Below are positions 11,260 through 26,277 of a stretch of 64,000 nucleotides of DNA, piece by piece. Position numbers and translations under genes: made by a program. The stretch is from IMG/VR virus record IMGVR_UViG_3300020198_000887, positions 32,001 to 96,000 of that record. One strand, written 5' to 3'. How positions within the stretch are numbered: position 1 is the stretch's first letter; each line of letters starts with the position of its first letter. This DNA is from a virus. A model generated the notes under the pieces. It ran no database searches and was not told the origin of the DNA. It saw only the letters and a program-made list of their open reading frames with translations.

Positions 11260-12819
11260 ATGGTAGAGCCAAGTAACGAACTAGAAGAAGTTTTCAGTAA
11301 AGCTGCAGATACCGTAAAAAAACTACACCATGAATATATAACAATAGAACATGTATTGTTCGCTATGTTATCAAACCAAAGGTTTGTTGATATAATTAAT
11401 AATTTCGGTTCAAACGCAGAAGACTTACGAAAACTGGTTACAAACCACTTGCAAACTAAATGCGAGGACATTACGACCACCGAACAAGTTACCCACCCAA
11501 AGAAAACAGCCGCGTTTGAACGGCTGCTAAATAAAGCATTTACACAAGTAATTTTTAATAATCGACAACGTGTGGAAATCACTGATGCCTTTTTAATGAT
11601 GTTAAATGAAAAACGTAGTTGGGCATTTTTCTACATTTCACAAGTTGGTATTGAAAAAGAAAAATTTGCTGATTATTTAAATACAACAGCAGATGCGGCC
11701 GATGAAGAAGCCCCAGATGAGCTTGACCCCCGCCACATTAAATCGTTACAAGCATATACAACTGACCTCAACGACCAAGTGTTGAAAGGAAAAATAGACC
11801 CAGTGATTGGACGAGTTGATGAACTTGAAAATATCGCATTGGCACTTGGTCGCCGATCTAAAAACAACGTGATTTTAGTTGGGGACCCAGGTGTTGGTAA
11901 AACTGCGATTGCAGAAGGTCTTGCATACAATATTGTAAATGGTGGAGTTCCAGATTTTTTGAAAGATTATACTGTTTATAATTTAGATATATCGGCAATG
12001 CTTGCCGGAACAAAATATCGGGGTGATTTTGAAGAACGCTTTAAACAAGTAATTAAAGCACTTGATAAAAAAGGAAAAACAGTTCTTTTTATTGATGAAG
12101 CACATATGATCAGTGGTGCAGGTGCATCGGCAAGTTCAGCAAATGACCTTGCTAATATGATGAAACCTGCACTAAGCAAGGGTAATATTAAAGTCATTGC
12201 ATCAACTACTTGGGAAGAATATCGCAAACACTTTGAAAAAGATCGCGCATTAATGCGTCGATTCCAACGTATTACGGTCGATGAACCATCACAAGAAATG
12301 ACTTTAAAAATCTTAAAAGGATTAAAAAAATATTATGAATCACATCATAATGTAAAAATTAAAACTGATGCATTGCAATCTTCAATAAAATTGTCAGTAA
12401 AATATCAAGCTGATAAAAAACTGCCAGATAAAGCAATTGATTTAATTGATTGTGCCTGTTCACGATTCAATTTAAAATTGGCGGATGACCGAATTATTAC
12501 AGAACGTGAAATTCAATATGAATTAGCGAAAATGATTAATATTCCAGAAGAACAAATTATGGAAACTGAGAGTAATACATTAGTCGATTTGCAAGAAAAA
12601 CTTGAAGCAGATGTTTACGGTCAAGATGCTGCGTTAACTGAAGTGGTTGATAAAATTATAGTTGCACAAGCCGGGTTAAAACCAGATAATAAACCAATCG
12701 GGTCTTTTGTATTTATGGGTCCAACCGGCTGTGGTAAATGTTTAAGTTACGATCAAGAAATAACTTTACAAATTCCCCAAGATATGTACAATTTTGCTAT
12801 CAAAAATAACTTAATTTAG
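11260..12819 (+). CDS. clpA: ClpA-like Hsp100, N-terminal half fused to a 26-aa N-intein
   Basis: Clp N-domain, AAA1 (GDPGVGKT, FIDEAH), no M-domain; ends GPTGCGK|CLSYDQEITL... Confidence 0.9.
   Translation: MVEPSNELEEVFSKAADTVKKLHHEYITIEHVLFAMLSNQRFVDIINNFGSNAEDLRKLVTNHLQTKCEDITTTEQVTHPKKTAAFERLLNKAFTQVIFNNRQRVEITDAFLMMLNEKRSWAFFYISQVGIEKEKFADYLNTTADAADEEAPDELDPRHIKSLQAYTTDLNDQVLKGKIDPVIGRVDELENIALALGRRSKNNVILVGDPGVGKTAIAEGLAYNIVNGGVPDFLKDYTVYNLDISAMLAGTKYRGDFEERFKQVIKALDKKGKTVLFIDEAHMISGAGASASSANDLANMMKPALSKGNIKVIASTTWEEYRKHFEKDRALMRRFQRITVDEPSQEMTLKILKGLKKYYESHHNVKIKTDALQSSIKLSVKYQADKKLPDKAIDLIDCACSRFNLKLADDRIITEREIQYELAKMINIPEEQIMETESNTLVDLQEKLEADVYGQDAALTEVVDKIIVAQAGLKPDNKPIGSFVFMGPTGCGKCLSYDQEITLQIPQDMYNFAIKNNLI
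12739..12816 (+). mobile_element. Atypically short split-intein N-fragment (26 aa)
   Basis: Block A CLSYDQEI starts exactly where the Walker A Thr should be; followed by TAG TAA. Confidence 0.85.
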
Positions 12820-22380: not shown

Positions 22381-22536
22381 ATGGGAATTAACAAAGACTA
22401 CGACTTTGAAGCATGTGAAACTTGTCCACCACTTTACGAATTTGCAGCTAGGTGTTCATGTAAAATAGAAGACGTACTGGTAGATATATCAAAAGAACTC
22501 AATGAAGGTATCTCTTTATGGGAGGATTCTGAATGA
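22381..22536 (+). CDS. Small acidic Cys-containing protein (51 aa, absent from the ORF track)
   Basis: GGAG RBS; MGINKDYDFEACETCPPLYEFAARCSCK...; ATGA overlap with the polymerase start. Confidence 0.5.
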   Translation: MGINKDYDFEACETCPPLYEFAARCSCKIEDVLVDISKELNEGISLWEDSE

Positions 22537-25175
22537 GTTACGTAGATGCAATGTTTGACCGCGATTCGGACTTCATCAAAGTGGTAGAACGAATTAATGG
22601 AAAACGGGTATTCAAAGAATACCCAGTACGCCATACATTTTATTATGAAGATACCCGTGGTAAATATAAATCCATTTATGATACACCAGTCACAAAGGTA
22701 GTATGCAAAACAACCAAGGACTTCAGAAAAGAATTATCAATTAACAACAATAAAAAATTGTTTGAAGCTGATTTAAATCCAGTGTTTGTATGCCTAAGTT
22801 CCCAATATCAACATCAGGATCCCCCATCCCTAAATGTAGCGTGGCTCGACATTGAAGTGCGATTTGACCCAGAACGTGGCTATGCATCACCAGATGATGC
22901 ATTTATGCCAATTACTGCGGTCGCGGTTCATTTACAATGGCTAGATACTCTTATATGCCTTGCCGTCCCCCCACCAACATTGACAATGGATGAAGCAGTC
23001 CTGTTGGTGGAAGAATTTCCGAATACACACTTATTCAACACAGAAGCAGAATTATTAGATGCATTTTTGGATCTAATTAAAGATGCTGATGTATTAAGTG
23101 GGTGGAATAGCGAAGGGTTTGATATTCCATATCTCGTAAACCGGGTCACAAAGGCATTGAGTAAAAATGATACTCGTAGATTTTGTTTATGGAATCAATT
23201 CCCAAAACGCAGGGAATATGAAAAATATGGTAAAGAGGCCGTCACGTATGACTTAGTCGGGCGAGTTCATTTAGATAGCTTAGAATTATACAGAAAATAT
23301 ACCTATGAAGAACGGCATAGCTATCGGTTAGATGCTATTGCAGAATATGAATTGGGTGATAGAAAAACTGCATATGAAGGAACGTTAGACCAATTATATA
23401 ACAATGATTTTAAAAAATTTATTGAATATAATAGGCAAGATACCATGCTGTTAGAAAAACTTGACAAAAAATTAAAGTTTTTAGATTTAGCAAATGCAAT
23501 TGCACATGAAAATACTGTATTATTACAAACTACAATGGGCGCGGTCGCTGTTACTGAGCAAGCAATTATAAATGAAGCACATGACAGAGGATTCGTTGTA
23601 CCAAATCGTAATAGACAAGATACAAATGACGGTATGGCGGCTGGAGCATATGTTGCACACCCTAAAGAAGGGATACATGATTGGATCGGTTCCCTTGACA
23701 TTAATTCACTATACCCATCAGTTATTCGAGCATTAAATATGGGGCCAGAAACCATTGTTGGGCAACTATCACCCGCAATGTCTAACTCTTTTTTAAAAGG
23801 TCAATTAGCAAAAGGCAAATCAATTACCGCTGCGTGGGAAGGACGATTTGGTTCGTTGGAATATGATGCTGTTATGAATCGTGAGGTTGATACTTATATA
23901 ACAATCGAATGGGAAGAAGGCGGTTCGGATACAATTAGTGCAGCTAATATTTATAAATTAATTTATGAGTCAAACCAACCATGGATGCTGAGTGCTAATG
24001 GCACTATTTTTACACATGAACGGGAAGGTATCATACCAGGATTATTGAAACGATGGTATTCTGAACGTAAAGAGATGCAGAAAAAATTAAAAGAAGCCAT
24101 TACTTCAGGCGACAAAGAACAAGAAGAATACTGGGATAAACGACAACTAGTCAAAAAAATTAATTTGAATAGTTTATACGGTGCTATTCTTAATCAAGGC
24201 TGTCGGTTTTTTGATAAGCGAATTGGTCAATCAACTACACTAACTGGTAGACAAATTGCCAAACATATGGCAGCAGAAGTGAATAAAATTATTACTGGTG
24301 AATATAATCATGTTGGGAAATCTATTATATATGGTGATAGTGTAACTGGTGATTCAATGATTATATCCAACCAAGGTAGAATTACTATCGAGGAGTTATT
24401 TAATCGGTGTAATAACAACTACACATCAGGATCAAAAGAATATGGTAACAACGACGATATAACAGTAATGGGGTTTACTAATTCACCAGAAATGTGTAAT
24501 ATTCATTATGTAATGAGGCATTATACAACCAAAGATTTGTATGAAATAACATTAGAGAATGATAAACAAATTACTGTAACACAAGATCATAGTATAATGG
24601 TTATTAGAAATAATAGTATGATTGAATTAAAACCTACTGACATATCTGAATCAGATCTGTTTATATGCTTATCAAATGATATGAAAGAAGTAGAATTAGT
24701 ACAATATAAACAAATTGTCTGTAAAGGTTCAATTACTGATTATGTTTATGATATAAGCATCAATGGTGATAACCATATGTTTTTTGCGAATGAATGTTTA
24801 GTTCATAATACTGATAGTTGTTCTGCTGATACTATTATTAGAAGTAATTGGGGAGATTTGACCATTGAACAGCTATTCAATGCTGGTCAAATGTTTAGTA
24901 ATGAACAGACGGAACATGGTGTTAAGGAATACTCTTCTCATATGGACTTACAAGTGGTTTCATATGATGATTCTACTAATCAATCATATTATGGAAATGT
25001 AAATTACATCTATCGTCATAAAGTTTCAAAAGAACGCTGGGAGATAGAAGATGAACTTGGTCACAAAATAGTAGTGACTGGTGATCATTCAATAATGGTT
25101 GAGCGTAATGGTAAGTTGATAGAAATAAAACCACGGGATATTTTAGATACTGATATATTAATATGTCTTAATTGA
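22533..25175 (+). CDS. Family B DNA polymerase, N-terminal part (with a cis mini-intein and a split-intein N-fragment)
   Basis: Exo motifs DIE, GWNSEGFD, YNRQD; DINSLYPS; KINLNSLYG; YGD interrupted by an intein. Confidence 0.95.
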   Translation: MSYVDAMFDRDSDFIKVVERINGKRVFKEYPVRHTFYYEDTRGKYKSIYDTPVTKVVCKTTKDFRKELSINNNKKLFEADLNPVFVCLSSQYQHQDPPSLNVAWLDIEVRFDPERGYASPDDAFMPITAVAVHLQWLDTLICLAVPPPTLTMDEAVLLVEEFPNTHLFNTEAELLDAFLDLIKDADVLSGWNSEGFDIPYLVNRVTKALSKNDTRRFCLWNQFPKRREYEKYGKEAVTYDLVGRVHLDSLELYRKYTYEERHSYRLDAIAEYELGDRKTAYEGTLDQLYNNDFKKFIEYNRQDTMLLEKLDKKLKFLDLANAIAHENTVLLQTTMGAVAVTEQAIINEAHDRGFVVPNRNRQDTNDGMAAGAYVAHPKEGIHDWIGSLDINSLYPSVIRALNMGPETIVGQLSPAMSNSFLKGQLAKGKSITAAWEGRFGSLEYDAVMNREVDTYITIEWEEGGSDTISAANIYKLIYESNQPWMLSANGTIFTHEREGIIPGLLKRWYSERKEMQKKLKEAITSGDKEQEEYWDKRQLVKKINLNSLYGAILNQGCRFFDKRIGQSTTLTGRQIAKHMAAEVNKIITGEYNHVGKSIIYGDSVTGDSMIISNQGRITIEELFNRCNNNYTSGSKEYGNNDDITVMGFTNSPEMCNIHYVMRHYTTKDLYEITLENDKQITVTQDHSIMVIRNNSMIELKPTDISESDLFICLSNDMKEVELVQYKQIVCKGSITDYVYDISINGDNHMFFANECLVHNTDSCSADTIIRSNWGDLTIEQLFNAGQMFSNEQTEHGVKEYSSHMDLQVVSYDDSTNQSYYGNVNYIYRHKVSKERWEIEDELGHKIVVTGDHSIMVERNGKLIEIKPRDILDTDILICLN
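24339..24809 (+). mobile_element. Contiguous mini-intein, 157 aa, Ser1/Thr+1, at YGD|TD
   Basis: SVTGDS..., block B TQDHS, block F YVYDI, ends VHN; no endonuclease domain. Confidence 0.92.
24816..25172 (+). mobile_element. Split intein N-fragment, 119 aa, Ser1, at YGDTD|S
   Basis: SCSADT..., block B TGDHS; the ORF stops without block G. Confidence 0.9.
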
Positions 25176-25178
25176 TAA

Positions 25179-25328
25179 TTCGATAAGAGAAATAGTGCTA
25201 TCCGTCAAGGATTCGATGTATATGTTATTTGGGAATCTGATTGGAATAAAAATAAAAATAGTATAATAGAAAATATAAAAGATTGGTGGAATAATGGCAA
25301 TAACAAAACTAAAAATCAAATCAATTAA
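25179..25328 (+). pseudogene. Remnant C-terminus of a Vsr/DUF559-like homing endonuclease
   Basis: Start-less frame FDKRNSAIRQGFDVYVIWESDWNKNKNSIIENIKDWW between the split-intein halves. Confidence 0.65.
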
Positions 25329-25425
25329 ACATCTAGGCAATTTTGATGATGAATACGTATATGACATTGGGATGAAAAATGAAGCACATCCTTGGTTTTT
25401 TGGGAATAATATTTTAATTCATAAT
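25294..25425 (+). mobile_element. Split intein C-fragment, 44 aa, Ser+1
   Basis: Lys-rich N-terminus, block F YVYDIG, block G IHN|S. Confidence 0.92.
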
Positions 25426-26277
25426 TCCTGTTATTTCTCAGCATATTCTACGTTAAAAACTGATATTGACAATGGGACTATTCCGTGGAGTAAAGAAGAT
25501 ATATCTGCATTCTACGATGGAATAGGAAACCTGGTAAATGGTACCTTTCAACGATTTATGCTAGATGCATTTAACTGCCCTGCATCACGGGGTGAAGTTA
25601 TCAAAGCAGGGCGTGAAATCGTTGGGGTTAAGGGATTATTTATTACCAAAAAACGGTATGCAGTGTTAGTATATGATAAAGAAGGTAAACGAAAAGACAC
25701 CAATGGTAAACCTGGTGAAATCAAAGCAATGGGGTTGGATTTAAAGAGATCAGATACCCCAGAATACATGCAAACATTTTTAAGTGACGTCCTTGAAATG
25801 GTATTAGATGGGGTACCAGAATCCGAGGTATTAGATACAATTAAAAATTTTAGATCTAGTTTCAAAGCATTGGATGGGTGGGAAAAAGGATCACCTAAAC
25901 GTGCTAATAATATAACTAAATATCAAAAATTAGAAGAAAAACATGGAAAATCTAATTTACCAGGCCATGTTAGAGCCAGTATAAATTGGAATACCTTGAA
26001 AAGAATTTTTAATGACAAATATTCCATGAATATTACAGATGGTGCAAAAGTAATTGTGTGCAAATTAAAACCAAATCCATTGGGTTTCACAAGTGTAGCA
26101 TATCCAGTAGATGAATTAAGATTGCCGCAGTGGTTTAAAGATTTGCCGTTTGACCACGATGAAATGGAAGCTACCATAATTGACAAAAAGGTAGAAAACT
26201 TGATTGGTGTTCTTAACTTAGATTTACAAAGTACCAATGAAAAAACTACCTTCAGTAAATTGTTTTTCTTCAAATAA
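25294..26277 (+). CDS. Family B DNA polymerase, C-terminal part with a 44-aa C-intein
   Basis: MAITK...YVYDIG...IHN|SCYF; KKRYAV, KAMGLDLKRSDTP. Confidence 0.95.
   Translation: MAITKLKIKSIKHLGNFDDEYVYDIGMKNEAHPWFFGNNILIHNSCYFSAYSTLKTDIDNGTIPWSKEDISAFYDGIGNLVNGTFQRFMLDAFNCPASRGEVIKAGREIVGVKGLFITKKRYAVLVYDKEGKRKDTNGKPGEIKAMGLDLKRSDTPEYMQTFLSDVLEMVLDGVPESEVLDTIKNFRSSFKALDGWEKGSPKRANNITKYQKLEEKHGKSNLPGHVRASINWNTLKRIFNDKYSMNITDGAKVIVCKLKPNPLGFTSVAYPVDELRLPQWFKDLPFDHDEMEATIIDKKVENLIGVLNLDLQSTNEKTTFSKLFFFK

Follow-up and report, generated by a model that had tools for sequence, protein, structure and literature searches.

How can a functional DNA polymerase be made from a gene whose catalytic motif is interrupted twice within two residues, with the second interruption falling between two open reading frames? 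This question is raised by a polB locus of an uncultured jumbo phage related to PA5oct, the Rak2-like phages and SCTP-2. It lies in a 64,000-nucleotide stretch of DNA (the window) that was analysed from a 142 kb IMG/VR record, itself about 37% complete. In all likelihood the locus encodes a family-B replicative polymerase whose motif C is interrupted by two related, separately acquired Ser1 inteins of class 1, one contiguous and the other split, with an endonuclease fossil in the split one. The polymerase would mature by one cis- and one trans-splicing event, and the pair has probably been kept as a unit within a clade.

All elements of the locus are on the + strand. The first frame, ORF1 (22533–25175), begins with a 602-residue PolB N-extein (22533–24338) that contains the exonuclease and polymerase domains (PF03104, E = 1.5e-17; PF00136, E = 2.8e-30), shares 77.9% identity with the N-extein of the homologue P0041, and ends in IIYGD, the first half of motif C. 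Next comes intein 1, a contiguous mini-intein of 157 residues (SVTGDS...ECLVHN; 24339–24809) without an endonuclease domain, inserted at site A (YGD/TD, the slash marking the junction). The middle extein is the motif C dipeptide Thr-Asp (24810–24815), which is invariant in 20 tandem relatives, and it is followed by the 119-residue N-terminal part, IntN, of a second intein at site B (DTD/S) (SCSADT...ICLN; 24816–25172). The stop codons TGA TAA (25173–25178) lie directly 3′ of IntN. ORF2 (25294–26277) starts with the 44-residue C-terminal part, IntC (MAITK...NILIHN; 25294–25425), which includes block F as YVYDIG and block G as ILIHN, and continues into a C-extein of 283 residues and a stop codon (25426–26277). 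The C-extein begins with SCYF, matches PF00136 (E = 6.2e-5) and gives tblastn matches to the C-terminal parts of the PolBs of PA5oct, SCTP-2 and KP13-7. When both inteins are taken out, IIYGD, TD and SCYF join to restore motif C as YGDTDSCYF, and uninterrupted PolB relatives carry plain YGDTDS. The exonuclease and polymerase domains, together with this restored motif, mark the product as a family B DNA polymerase of the T4 gp43-like type; no other PolB is present in the 142 kb of this partial record, and a second polymerase may lie in the rest of the genome.

The first-pass annotation had drawn the intein and extein borders from the letters of the window, and they are right to the base in the ORF coordinates, the junctions and the restored YGDTDSCYF. 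The borders of the two sites are set by relatives in which a single site is occupied: SCTP-2 and KP13-7 have YGD/intein/TDS and PA5oct has YGDTD/intein/SCYF, which also bears out the annotation's statement that both sites are individually used in PolB. It had further proposed that each intein supplies a flank of the other, and this is so. The Thr of the middle extein is the +1 nucleophile for intein 1 and the Asp is the −1 residue for intein 2, and the first Ser of the C-extein serves both as the +1 nucleophile of intein 2 and as the final residue of YGDTDS.

The presence of two inteins is far beyond chance. The Pfam family Intein_splicing (PF14890) matches ORF1 in two stretches with 69.5 bits, the cut-off being 35.8, and a profile scan of the genome also finds both inteins, intein 1 with 41 bits and IntN alone with a borderline 35.7–36.2 bits. 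The best PDB match of intein 1 is 9HTH, the Aes123 PolB1 intein (E = 2e-18), which is matched by IntN as well (E = 2.8e-13). The two inteins are also alike, with 42% identity between intein 1 and IntN (E = 2e-28) and 41% between IntC and the C-terminal part of intein 1.

Judged by their motifs, both appear to be Ser1 inteins of class 1, like the Aes123 PolB1 intein, with all catalytic blocks intact. The position-1 nucleophiles are Ser603 in intein 1 and Ser762 in IntN, each invariant in 17 aligned tandem relatives. Block B (TxxH) is present as T683-Q-D-H686 and T849-G-D-H852, with the Thr, Asp and His invariant. Blocks F and G and the nucleophilic +1 residue are seen as VYD738–740...LVH758-N759/T760 for intein 1 and as YVYD...LIHN44/S45 in ORF2 for intein 2. 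Upstream of block B, an Arg precedes the conserved His in both (R662-H663 and R828-H829); H663, R828 and H829 are invariant, and R662 occurs in at least 90% of rows. Such an R/K-H pair is known as the NX motif and is reported to be specific to Ser1, cysteine-independent inteins (PMC10189870). Across 17–20 tandem relatives that are only 27–65% identical to ORF1 overall, the invariant ORF1 residues comprise S603, H663, T683/D685/H686, VYD738–740, N759, T760, D761, S762, R828-H829 and T849/D851/H852. In ORF2, D19-E-Y-V-Y-D-I25, H43, N44 and S45 are likewise invariant.

The second intein is split, IntN and IntC being encoded by separate ORFs and jointly making up one complete HINT domain. Together they match the contiguous 164–171-residue site-B inteins of P0002 and P0003 over their whole length, IntC matching their C-terminal part, and the split point corresponds to a loop position in these contiguous relatives. 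IntC has its own ATG, preceded by a ribosome-binding-like GGTGG at 25285–25289. Complex prediction lends the IntN–IntC pairing weak support, with a score of 0.45 for the pair and 0.00 for the best control; the pass may reflect likeness to solved split-intein complexes and not binding. Of 80 solved complexes, 58 reached the mark used, as did 2 of 110 mismatched pairs, and scores of 0.60 or below included just 7 of the 80 plus both mismatches. Contact agreement between runs was at least 75%, with a partner pLDDT of at least 56. In the interval from ORF1 to ORF2 a promoter and terminator scan, itself performing at chance level (29 found, 26 expected), showed no terminator on the + strand.

The two ORFs are separated by a 118-nt spacer. 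From 25179 to 25293 it holds, in the IntN frame and without a start codon, the fossil 3′ end, about 38 codons long, of a free-standing Vsr-like homing endonuclease gene, recognised by DNA alignment and by its identity to the endonucleases of relatives. [quoted passage not shown] Intact endonuclease genes of 351, 368 and 572 residues lie between IntN and IntC in three cis+split relatives (L007, L011 and L012), and the gene is intact also in PA5oct and KP13-7. None of the endonucleases matches a Pfam family above its cut-off; there is a weak match to PF18741, and to DUF723/DUF4379 for the 572-residue type, and the label 'Vsr-like' denotes a motif resemblance to the family of Dassa. In a fractured gene the halves enclose a free-standing homing endonuclease gene that is intact, and here only the fossil is found. 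The polB of the window is a fractured gene that has decayed: deletion has left 38 codons of the endonuclease gene of intein 2, and this fossil still carries the ribosome-binding site for IntC.

The tandem arrangement is real and recurrent, not a lone oddity. A survey of PolB homologues for double occupancy, suggested in the first-pass annotation, was positive: the exact N/TD/S junction is present in 22 protein clusters besides that of the window, of several origins, ten being cis+split, ten cis+cis and two fragments. These derive from JGI, ENA, Logan and NCBI assemblies, and the P0004 cluster alone is represented in 91 blocks of the assembly collection. The tandem counts rest on the protein database; a search of IMG/VR with the intein region gave 74 loci, the matches spanning only 20–68 residues of extein and intein start.

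In the IQ-TREE phylogeny the tandem inteins of each site group with single-occupancy inteins of that site: those of site A (support 96) fall among single site-A inteins and those of site B among single site-B ones, and the sub-clades of the two sites match. On the extein tree, intein occupancy changes 31 times among 151 rows. The pair has probably been passed on together, by inheritance or transfer, in a clade that comprises 11 clusters or more, with comparable tandems arising several further times.

A stronger version of this history treats the two inteins as a single cassette, co-adapted and mutually orthogonal, which passes as a unit between diverged phage polB alleles and splices sequentially because the active sites share a dipeptide. 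The site-A and site-B intein sub-trees do match each other. Intein 2 of the window is 64–70% identical to those of P0002, P0003 and P0004, and the host N-extein is less conserved, at 53–62%; P0041, the nearest host gene with 78% identity in the N-extein, differs in its intein state. We regard this version as rather unlikely. If it were true, the locus would provide a natural two-step, cysteine-free protein-ligation system with the shortest working internal extein known.

Under the favoured reading of two separately acquired inteins, the ORF1 product would be N-extein–intein 1–TD–IntN. Intein 1 would leave in cis through Ser1, Thr+1 and Asn157, and IntN would pair with the IntC of the ORF2 product for trans-splicing through Ser1, Ser+1 and Asn44. 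Both events together would yield ...IIYGDTDSCYF... in a full-length polymerase of 602 + 2 + 283 = 887 residues. The need for one cis and one trans event, proposed when the locus was first described, is supported by the intact catalytic residues and the broken motif C, and active polymerase should require both. The first residue of intein 2 is Ser, which gives intein 1 a native-like T-D-S flank, and intein 2 has the native T-D at −2 and −1; with native-like flanks for both inteins, either splicing order is chemically permitted. The split fragments of Ssp DnaE, Npu DnaE and Aes123 PolB1, IntN included, are largely disordered until paired (PMC12707363). Since an unpaired IntN would be largely disordered here too, cis-first is probably the likelier kinetic route.

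It is a further step to suppose that the order is fixed, which the first-pass annotation thought possible, that it runs obligatorily from cis to trans, and that host or phage uses it as a timer or checkpoint of polymerase maturation. Steric interference is plausible, as the N-extein, two HINT domains and the C-extein meet within two residues; disorder of the unpaired IntN would favour the same sequence of events, and the tandem has been kept throughout a diverged clade. Against this, in ten clusters both inteins are contiguous cis elements, so that the tandem can persist with an unsplit second intein. The precursor left after either event is also of the same kind as natural single-intein precursors, and the labile occupancy on the extein tree is expected of selfish elements and not of a regulatory device. 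We therefore think such an obligatory order or checkpoint improbable.

Local duplication, in which one intein arose from the other by tandem duplication or a slip of the six-base site, would make the two recent paralogues with a risk of cross-splicing. Their 42% and 41% identities in the N- and C-terminal parts are compatible with this, and the site label changes about eight times on the 201-row tree; in another tandem lineage, P0008, both inteins fall in one well-supported clade and a shift of site may have taken place. In the lineage of the window, however, each intein is nearer to single-occupancy inteins of the site it occupies than to the other intein of the pair. Placing both tandem groups in a single clade costs 61 log-likelihood units and is rejected by an AU test (p-AU = 1.9e-5), with the groups chosen after the first tree was seen and the trees using about 116 alignment columns. 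Duplication is thus largely refuted for this lineage and is very improbable. That the arrangement is a chimera of two alleles made in assembly, or a decaying polB in which splicing has been lost, has a negligible probability and is refuted as far as sequence can tell: the source is a metagenome-assembled record and decay has already reached the endonuclease gene that separates the halves, but the same junction recurs in 22 other clusters from four assembly sources, both frames are intact, the catalytic residues of both inteins and motif C are all conserved, and an amino-acid identity of 42% between the inteins is too low for mis-assembly.

The individual elements of the locus have known counterparts. 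The closest in chemistry are the Aes123 and CP21 PolB1 inteins of T4-like Aeromonas and Campylobacter phages, which are cysteine-independent Ser1/Ser+1 inteins at the same DTD/S site, split at the endonuclease position (PMC11923092, PMC12707363); the first-pass annotation was correct in naming Aes123 PolB1 as a natural split intein of this kind. Their IntN (about 115–120 residues) and IntC (about 39–44 residues) are similar in length, and sequence identity is only about 30–35%. Unlike the present locus, where a contiguous intein lies two residues upstream, the split intein is described there as the only one in the motif. Halves on adjacent same-strand ORFs are also found in fractured genes (Dassa et al. 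2009, PMC2677866), in the split PolBs of Pseudomonas phages PA5oct and MIJ3 (PMC6892783) and in KP13-7. The split falls at site B in PA5oct and at site A in KP13-7, and in each a free-standing homing endonuclease gene separates the halves, whereas here that gene is cut to its last ~38 codons and a second intein is present. In the Dassa model endonuclease loss precedes unlinking of the two halves (PMC2677866), and the fossil corresponds to this stage of loss. Intein 1 finds its counterpart in the PolB of the jumbo Salicola phage SCTP-2, a contiguous endonuclease-less Ser1/Thr+1 mini-intein at YGD/TDS, which differs in being the lone intein at the motif and in having Lys, not His, as penultimate residue.

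Several inteins in one replication gene are known from haloarchaeal MCM-a and MCM-d, where the part of the report considered here places the sites 'within close proximity' and gives no spacing (PMC10643990). The DnaB insertion points a and c are two residues apart (PMC4760082), described, in the part considered, for insertion points and not for joint occupancy in one protein. As far as these portions go, both cases differ from the present one, in which both sites are occupied at once and a dipeptide extein is left. Two inteins that reside together at a distance of two residues were not found described in the literature covered, which is thin for subscription journals; the arrangement within one motif is apparently undescribed, though such absence is not proof, and the elements themselves are known.

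The tandem implies that one intein can directly adjoin a second and that an extein of two residues suffices, which bears on the extein-context limits of splicing. As the pair must avoid cross-reaction within one precursor, tandems should readily supply cysteine-independent intein pairs that are orthogonal by nature, which protein chemists seek for three-segment ligation (PMC12707363). Cis+cis, cis+split with endonuclease and cis+split with fossil forms are all found among close relatives, and their coexistence offers a natural series for the Dassa model, in which split inteins arise through endonuclease invasion and loss. The mismatch between extein and intein histories likewise provides material on the co-homing of neighbouring inteins.

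A similar arrangement may already lie behind the published 'PolB2' inteins, such as LCGC14 PolB2, which are cysteine-less and split, have DTD N-flanks and S-x-Y C-flanks, and trans-splice in vitro. The paper on them describes neither a first intein nor a spacing, and no database match could be tied to the PolB2 contigs LAZR01010553.1 and JQIA01000298.1. The '2' in the name nevertheless hints at a second intein in the gene, and suggests that specialists have been seeing double-intein PolBs. The LCGC14 N-terminal part, at 422 codons, would fit about 140 residues of extein, an intein of ~160 residues, TD and a 120-residue IntN.

The window spans bases 32001-96000 of an IMG/VR virus record 142 kb long, whose completeness is put at 37%. 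Its polB region is similar to those of several jumbo phages, namely the Pseudomonas phage PA5oct group, Klebsiella and Escherichia phages of the Rak2 type, and SCTP-2 of Salicola. Two adjacent genes, 118 nt apart, encode the polymerase. ORF1 (22533-25175; 880 aa) matches Intein_splicing in two stretches, besides having the exonuclease and polymerase domains of family B. Its 602-residue N-extein (22533-24338), ending in IIYGD, is followed by the 157-residue intein 1 (24339-24809; SVTGDS...ECLVHN), by a middle extein consisting of Thr-Asp (24810-24815), and by the 119-residue IntN of intein 2 (24816-25172; SCSADT...ICLN), after which come TGA and TAA. ORF2 (25294-26277) begins with a 44-residue IntC ending in NILIHN and continues with SCYF and 279 further PolB residues. 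Removal of both inteins restores IIYGDTDSCYF, an intact motif C. The first-pass annotation had described two inteins around TD, one cis and one split, and this anatomy is exact, with the same boundaries and the same restored sequence.

The insertion sites are fixed by relatives that carry a single intein (slashes mark junctions). In SCTP-2 the arrangement is YGD/mini-intein...KN/TDSSYF; in Klebsiella phage KP13-7 it is YGD/IntN, a 325-aa endonuclease gene, then IntC...HN/TDSVYF; and in PA5oct it is YGDTD/IntN, a 560-aa endonuclease gene, then IntC...HN/SCYF. These layouts therefore define two sites, A (YGD/TD) and B (DTD/S). The characterised split inteins Aes123 PolB1 and CP21 PolB1, which have DTD flanks, occupy site B, like intein 2. 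Aes123 PolB1 occurs naturally split in Aeromonas phages, and among solved structures its own (PDB 9HTH) gives the best match to each window intein (E 2e-18 for intein 1, 2.8e-13 for IntN). Nearly all site-A inteins start SV(T/x)GD(S/T) (24339-24356 in the window), and the window precursor reads YGD-SVTGDS, nearly repeating the GD-x-x-S pattern of the interrupted motif.

Each of the two insertion sites is already known, and so are split PolB inteins with Ser1, genes with several inteins, and fractured genes, in which a homing endonuclease gene separates the halves of a split intein (PMC2677866). DnaB insertion points a and c lie two residues apart, but the account given of them is of insertion points only (PMC4760082). 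A full-text literature search found no description of two co-resident inteins two residues apart. The 'LCGC14 PolB2' and 'GOM-OPS-1 PolB2' inteins have DTD and S-x-Y flanks (PMC12707363); their names suggest a second intein in these genes, and the 422-codon N-part of LCGC14 would fit a tandem, although the paper mentions none. The window-type tandem is possibly undescribed, though specialists may have noticed it.

The proposed survey of PolB homologues for double occupancy proved positive. A collection of 5.8 billion proteins was searched with ORF1 residues 585-880, every match being parsed for intein N- and C-domains by HMMs, and the exact N/TD/S junction was found in 22 protein clusters besides the window's own. 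Ten have a cis intein followed by an IntN, like the window (P0004, P0008, P0017, P0119-P0122, P0124, P0152 and P0123, whose sequence starts within intein 1), and in another ten both inteins are contiguous (P0002, P0003, P0005-7, P0009, P0010, P0012, P0022, P0038). The other two are fragments: P0182, flagged as such in the domain parse, and P0125, whose place in the count is less secure as it is parsed as a single site-B domain. Singly occupied N-domains in the same match set number ~97 at site A and ~64 at site B. An assembly artefact is ruled out by the 22 other clusters and by P0004, a single cluster that the assembly collection indexes in 91 of its blocks.

Other arrangements are seen among these homologues. 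In P0172 and P0185, from short metagenomic contigs with the C-partners off the contigs, DTD/S...AHN runs straight into a second intein N-domain, SCVN.... These could be two site-B inteins with no extein residue between them, Ser1 of the second serving as the +1 residue of the first, or a site-B intein separated by one Ser from a Cys1 intein at DTDS/C. In several tandem-bearing relatives (the P0002 locus, L090:1376-5193, and the P0120 locus) polB is also divided into two overlapping genes ~120 aa before YGD, giving pieces of 541-553 and 398-730 aa. No intein lies at this break, which is similar to the division into 43A and 43B in Aeromonas phages. The polymerases of these relatives are built from more pieces than the window's.

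Catalytic residues are strictly conserved among 17-20 tandem relatives that are overall only 27-65% identical to ORF1. The invariant positions include Ser1 (S603), H663, T683/D685/H686, VYD738-740 and N759 of intein 1, T760 and D761 of the middle extein, and Ser1 (S762), R828-H829 and T849/D851/H852 of IntN; IntC retains block F, His-Asn and Ser+1. Upstream of block B the window inteins have an Arg/Lys-His pair; this NX motif has been reported to be the signature of cysteine-independent Ser1 inteins (PMC10189870). From their sequences, both look functional. From what is established about motif C, polymerase activity should be lost if 157 aa stand between the two Asp residues of YGDTDS or if the chain is broken after them, and selection on the polymerase would thus explain the conservation. 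No further family-B polymerase is found in the 142 kb of this ~37% complete record. The predicted complex of ORF1 residues 594-880 with ORF2 residues 1-75 scores 0.45 (best control 0.00), with at least 75% contact agreement between runs and partner pLDDT of at least 56, although likeness to solved complexes, rather than binding, may account for this pass. Of 80 solved complexes 58 pass the mark, as do 2 of 110 mismatched pairs; only 7 of the 80, and both mismatches, pass it with a score at or below 0.60. The prediction lends weak support to the pairing.

The mature polymerase would require one cis-splicing event, the excision of intein 1, and one trans-splicing event mediated by IntN and IntC of intein 2. 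Since Ser is the first residue of intein 2, the sequence downstream of intein 1 is T-D-S, just as in a gene with no insert; upstream of intein 2 stands T-D, but with Asn instead of Asp at position -3. Either event leaves a precursor of a kind found naturally alone in the single-intein relatives, and neither order appears chemically excluded. The ten clusters with both inteins in cis show that the tandem is independent of the second intein being split. For the arrangement in the window, splicing in cis first would be the likelier kinetic route, since intein 1 is complete once translated whereas unpaired IntN is largely disordered (PMC12707363).

The two window inteins share 42% identity in their N-parts (E 2e-28) and 41% in their C-parts, and are paralogues but not mutual closest relatives. 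In N-domain trees (FastTree, 201 rows; IQ-TREE, 54 rows), intein 1 groups with tandem site-A inteins in a clade of 11 (support 98 and 96, respectively), which in both trees is nested among single site-A inteins. IntN is placed in a set of 12 tandem site-B inteins that adjoins single site-B inteins. Placing both tandem groups, which were named after the first tree was seen, in one clade lowers the log-likelihood by 61 (p-AU 1.9e-5) and is rejected. The sub-clades {P0005, 6, 7}, {P0003, P0004, P0121} and {window, P0002, P0119, P0120, P0122} are common to both inteins, and the pair has therefore travelled together. Tandems elsewhere in the tree (P0008; P0009/10; P0012/22/152/17; P0124; P0038) point to about five further origins; the two inteins of P0008 belong to a single clade, which may reflect a site shift in that lineage.

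The polB host gene and its inteins do not share one history. By N-extein (window 22533-24338) the closest host gene is P0041, on a 352-kb contig, with 77.9% identity, yet it has only a split site-A intein (50% to intein 1, N-part only) and no site-B intein. More distant PolBs share the tandem: P0003 and P0004 are 56.7% and 61.6% identical in the N-extein, 54.8% and 50.3% in intein 1, and 67.8% and 64.3% in the N-part of intein 2. In a tree built from the 110 residues of extein that precede the site, occupancy changes state 31 times among 151 rows. This shows lability but not direction, the segment being short and flanking sequence being co-converted by homing.

The spacer is the remnant of a gene. 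Nucleotides 25179-25292, in the IntN frame past the two stops, encode FDKRNSAIRQGFDVYVIWESDWNKNKNSIIENIKDWWN. Compared with the final 36 residues encoded by a 351-aa free-standing gene between IntN and IntC in P0004 loci, its identity is 53% (E 5e-12); with the end of the endonuclease of KP13-7 it is 59%. The DNA alignment starts at about 25185 and extends past the beginning of IntC. All three other cis-plus-split relatives with usable DNA context have an intact gene here (351, 368 and 572 aa). The window thus retains, at 25179-25293, the start-less last ~38 codons of a Vsr-like homing endonuclease gene (intact homologue 351 aa in the P0004 locus, L007), ~920 nt having been lost. Pfam gives only a sub-threshold PF18741 match, and the Vsr-like label follows from resemblance to the family of Dassa et al. 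(PMC2677866). The fossil overlaps the GGTGG site and ATG of IntC, and its conserved GGTGGAATAATGG, which provides IntC with a ribosome-binding-like site and start codon, may be why this 3' end was kept. In the model of Dassa et al., endonuclease loss precedes the unlinking of split halves (PMC2677866), and the window, read from sequence, sits at that stage.

Further inteins are indicated in the same phage. The ClpA-like AAA+ ORF (11260-12780), in which Clp_N, AAA and AAA_lid_9 domains are confirmed, ends in a putative atypically split intein with a 26-aa IntN, as read in the first-pass annotation. Beside this and the PolB pair, a T4-like portal protein gene (PF07230, E 8e-98) outside the window (L003:466-3351; G000:C1, ~126.8-129.7 kb) contains a large intein spanning ~aa 346-727 (Intein_splicing 34.4 bits, just below cut-off), whose size suggests an embedded endonuclease domain.
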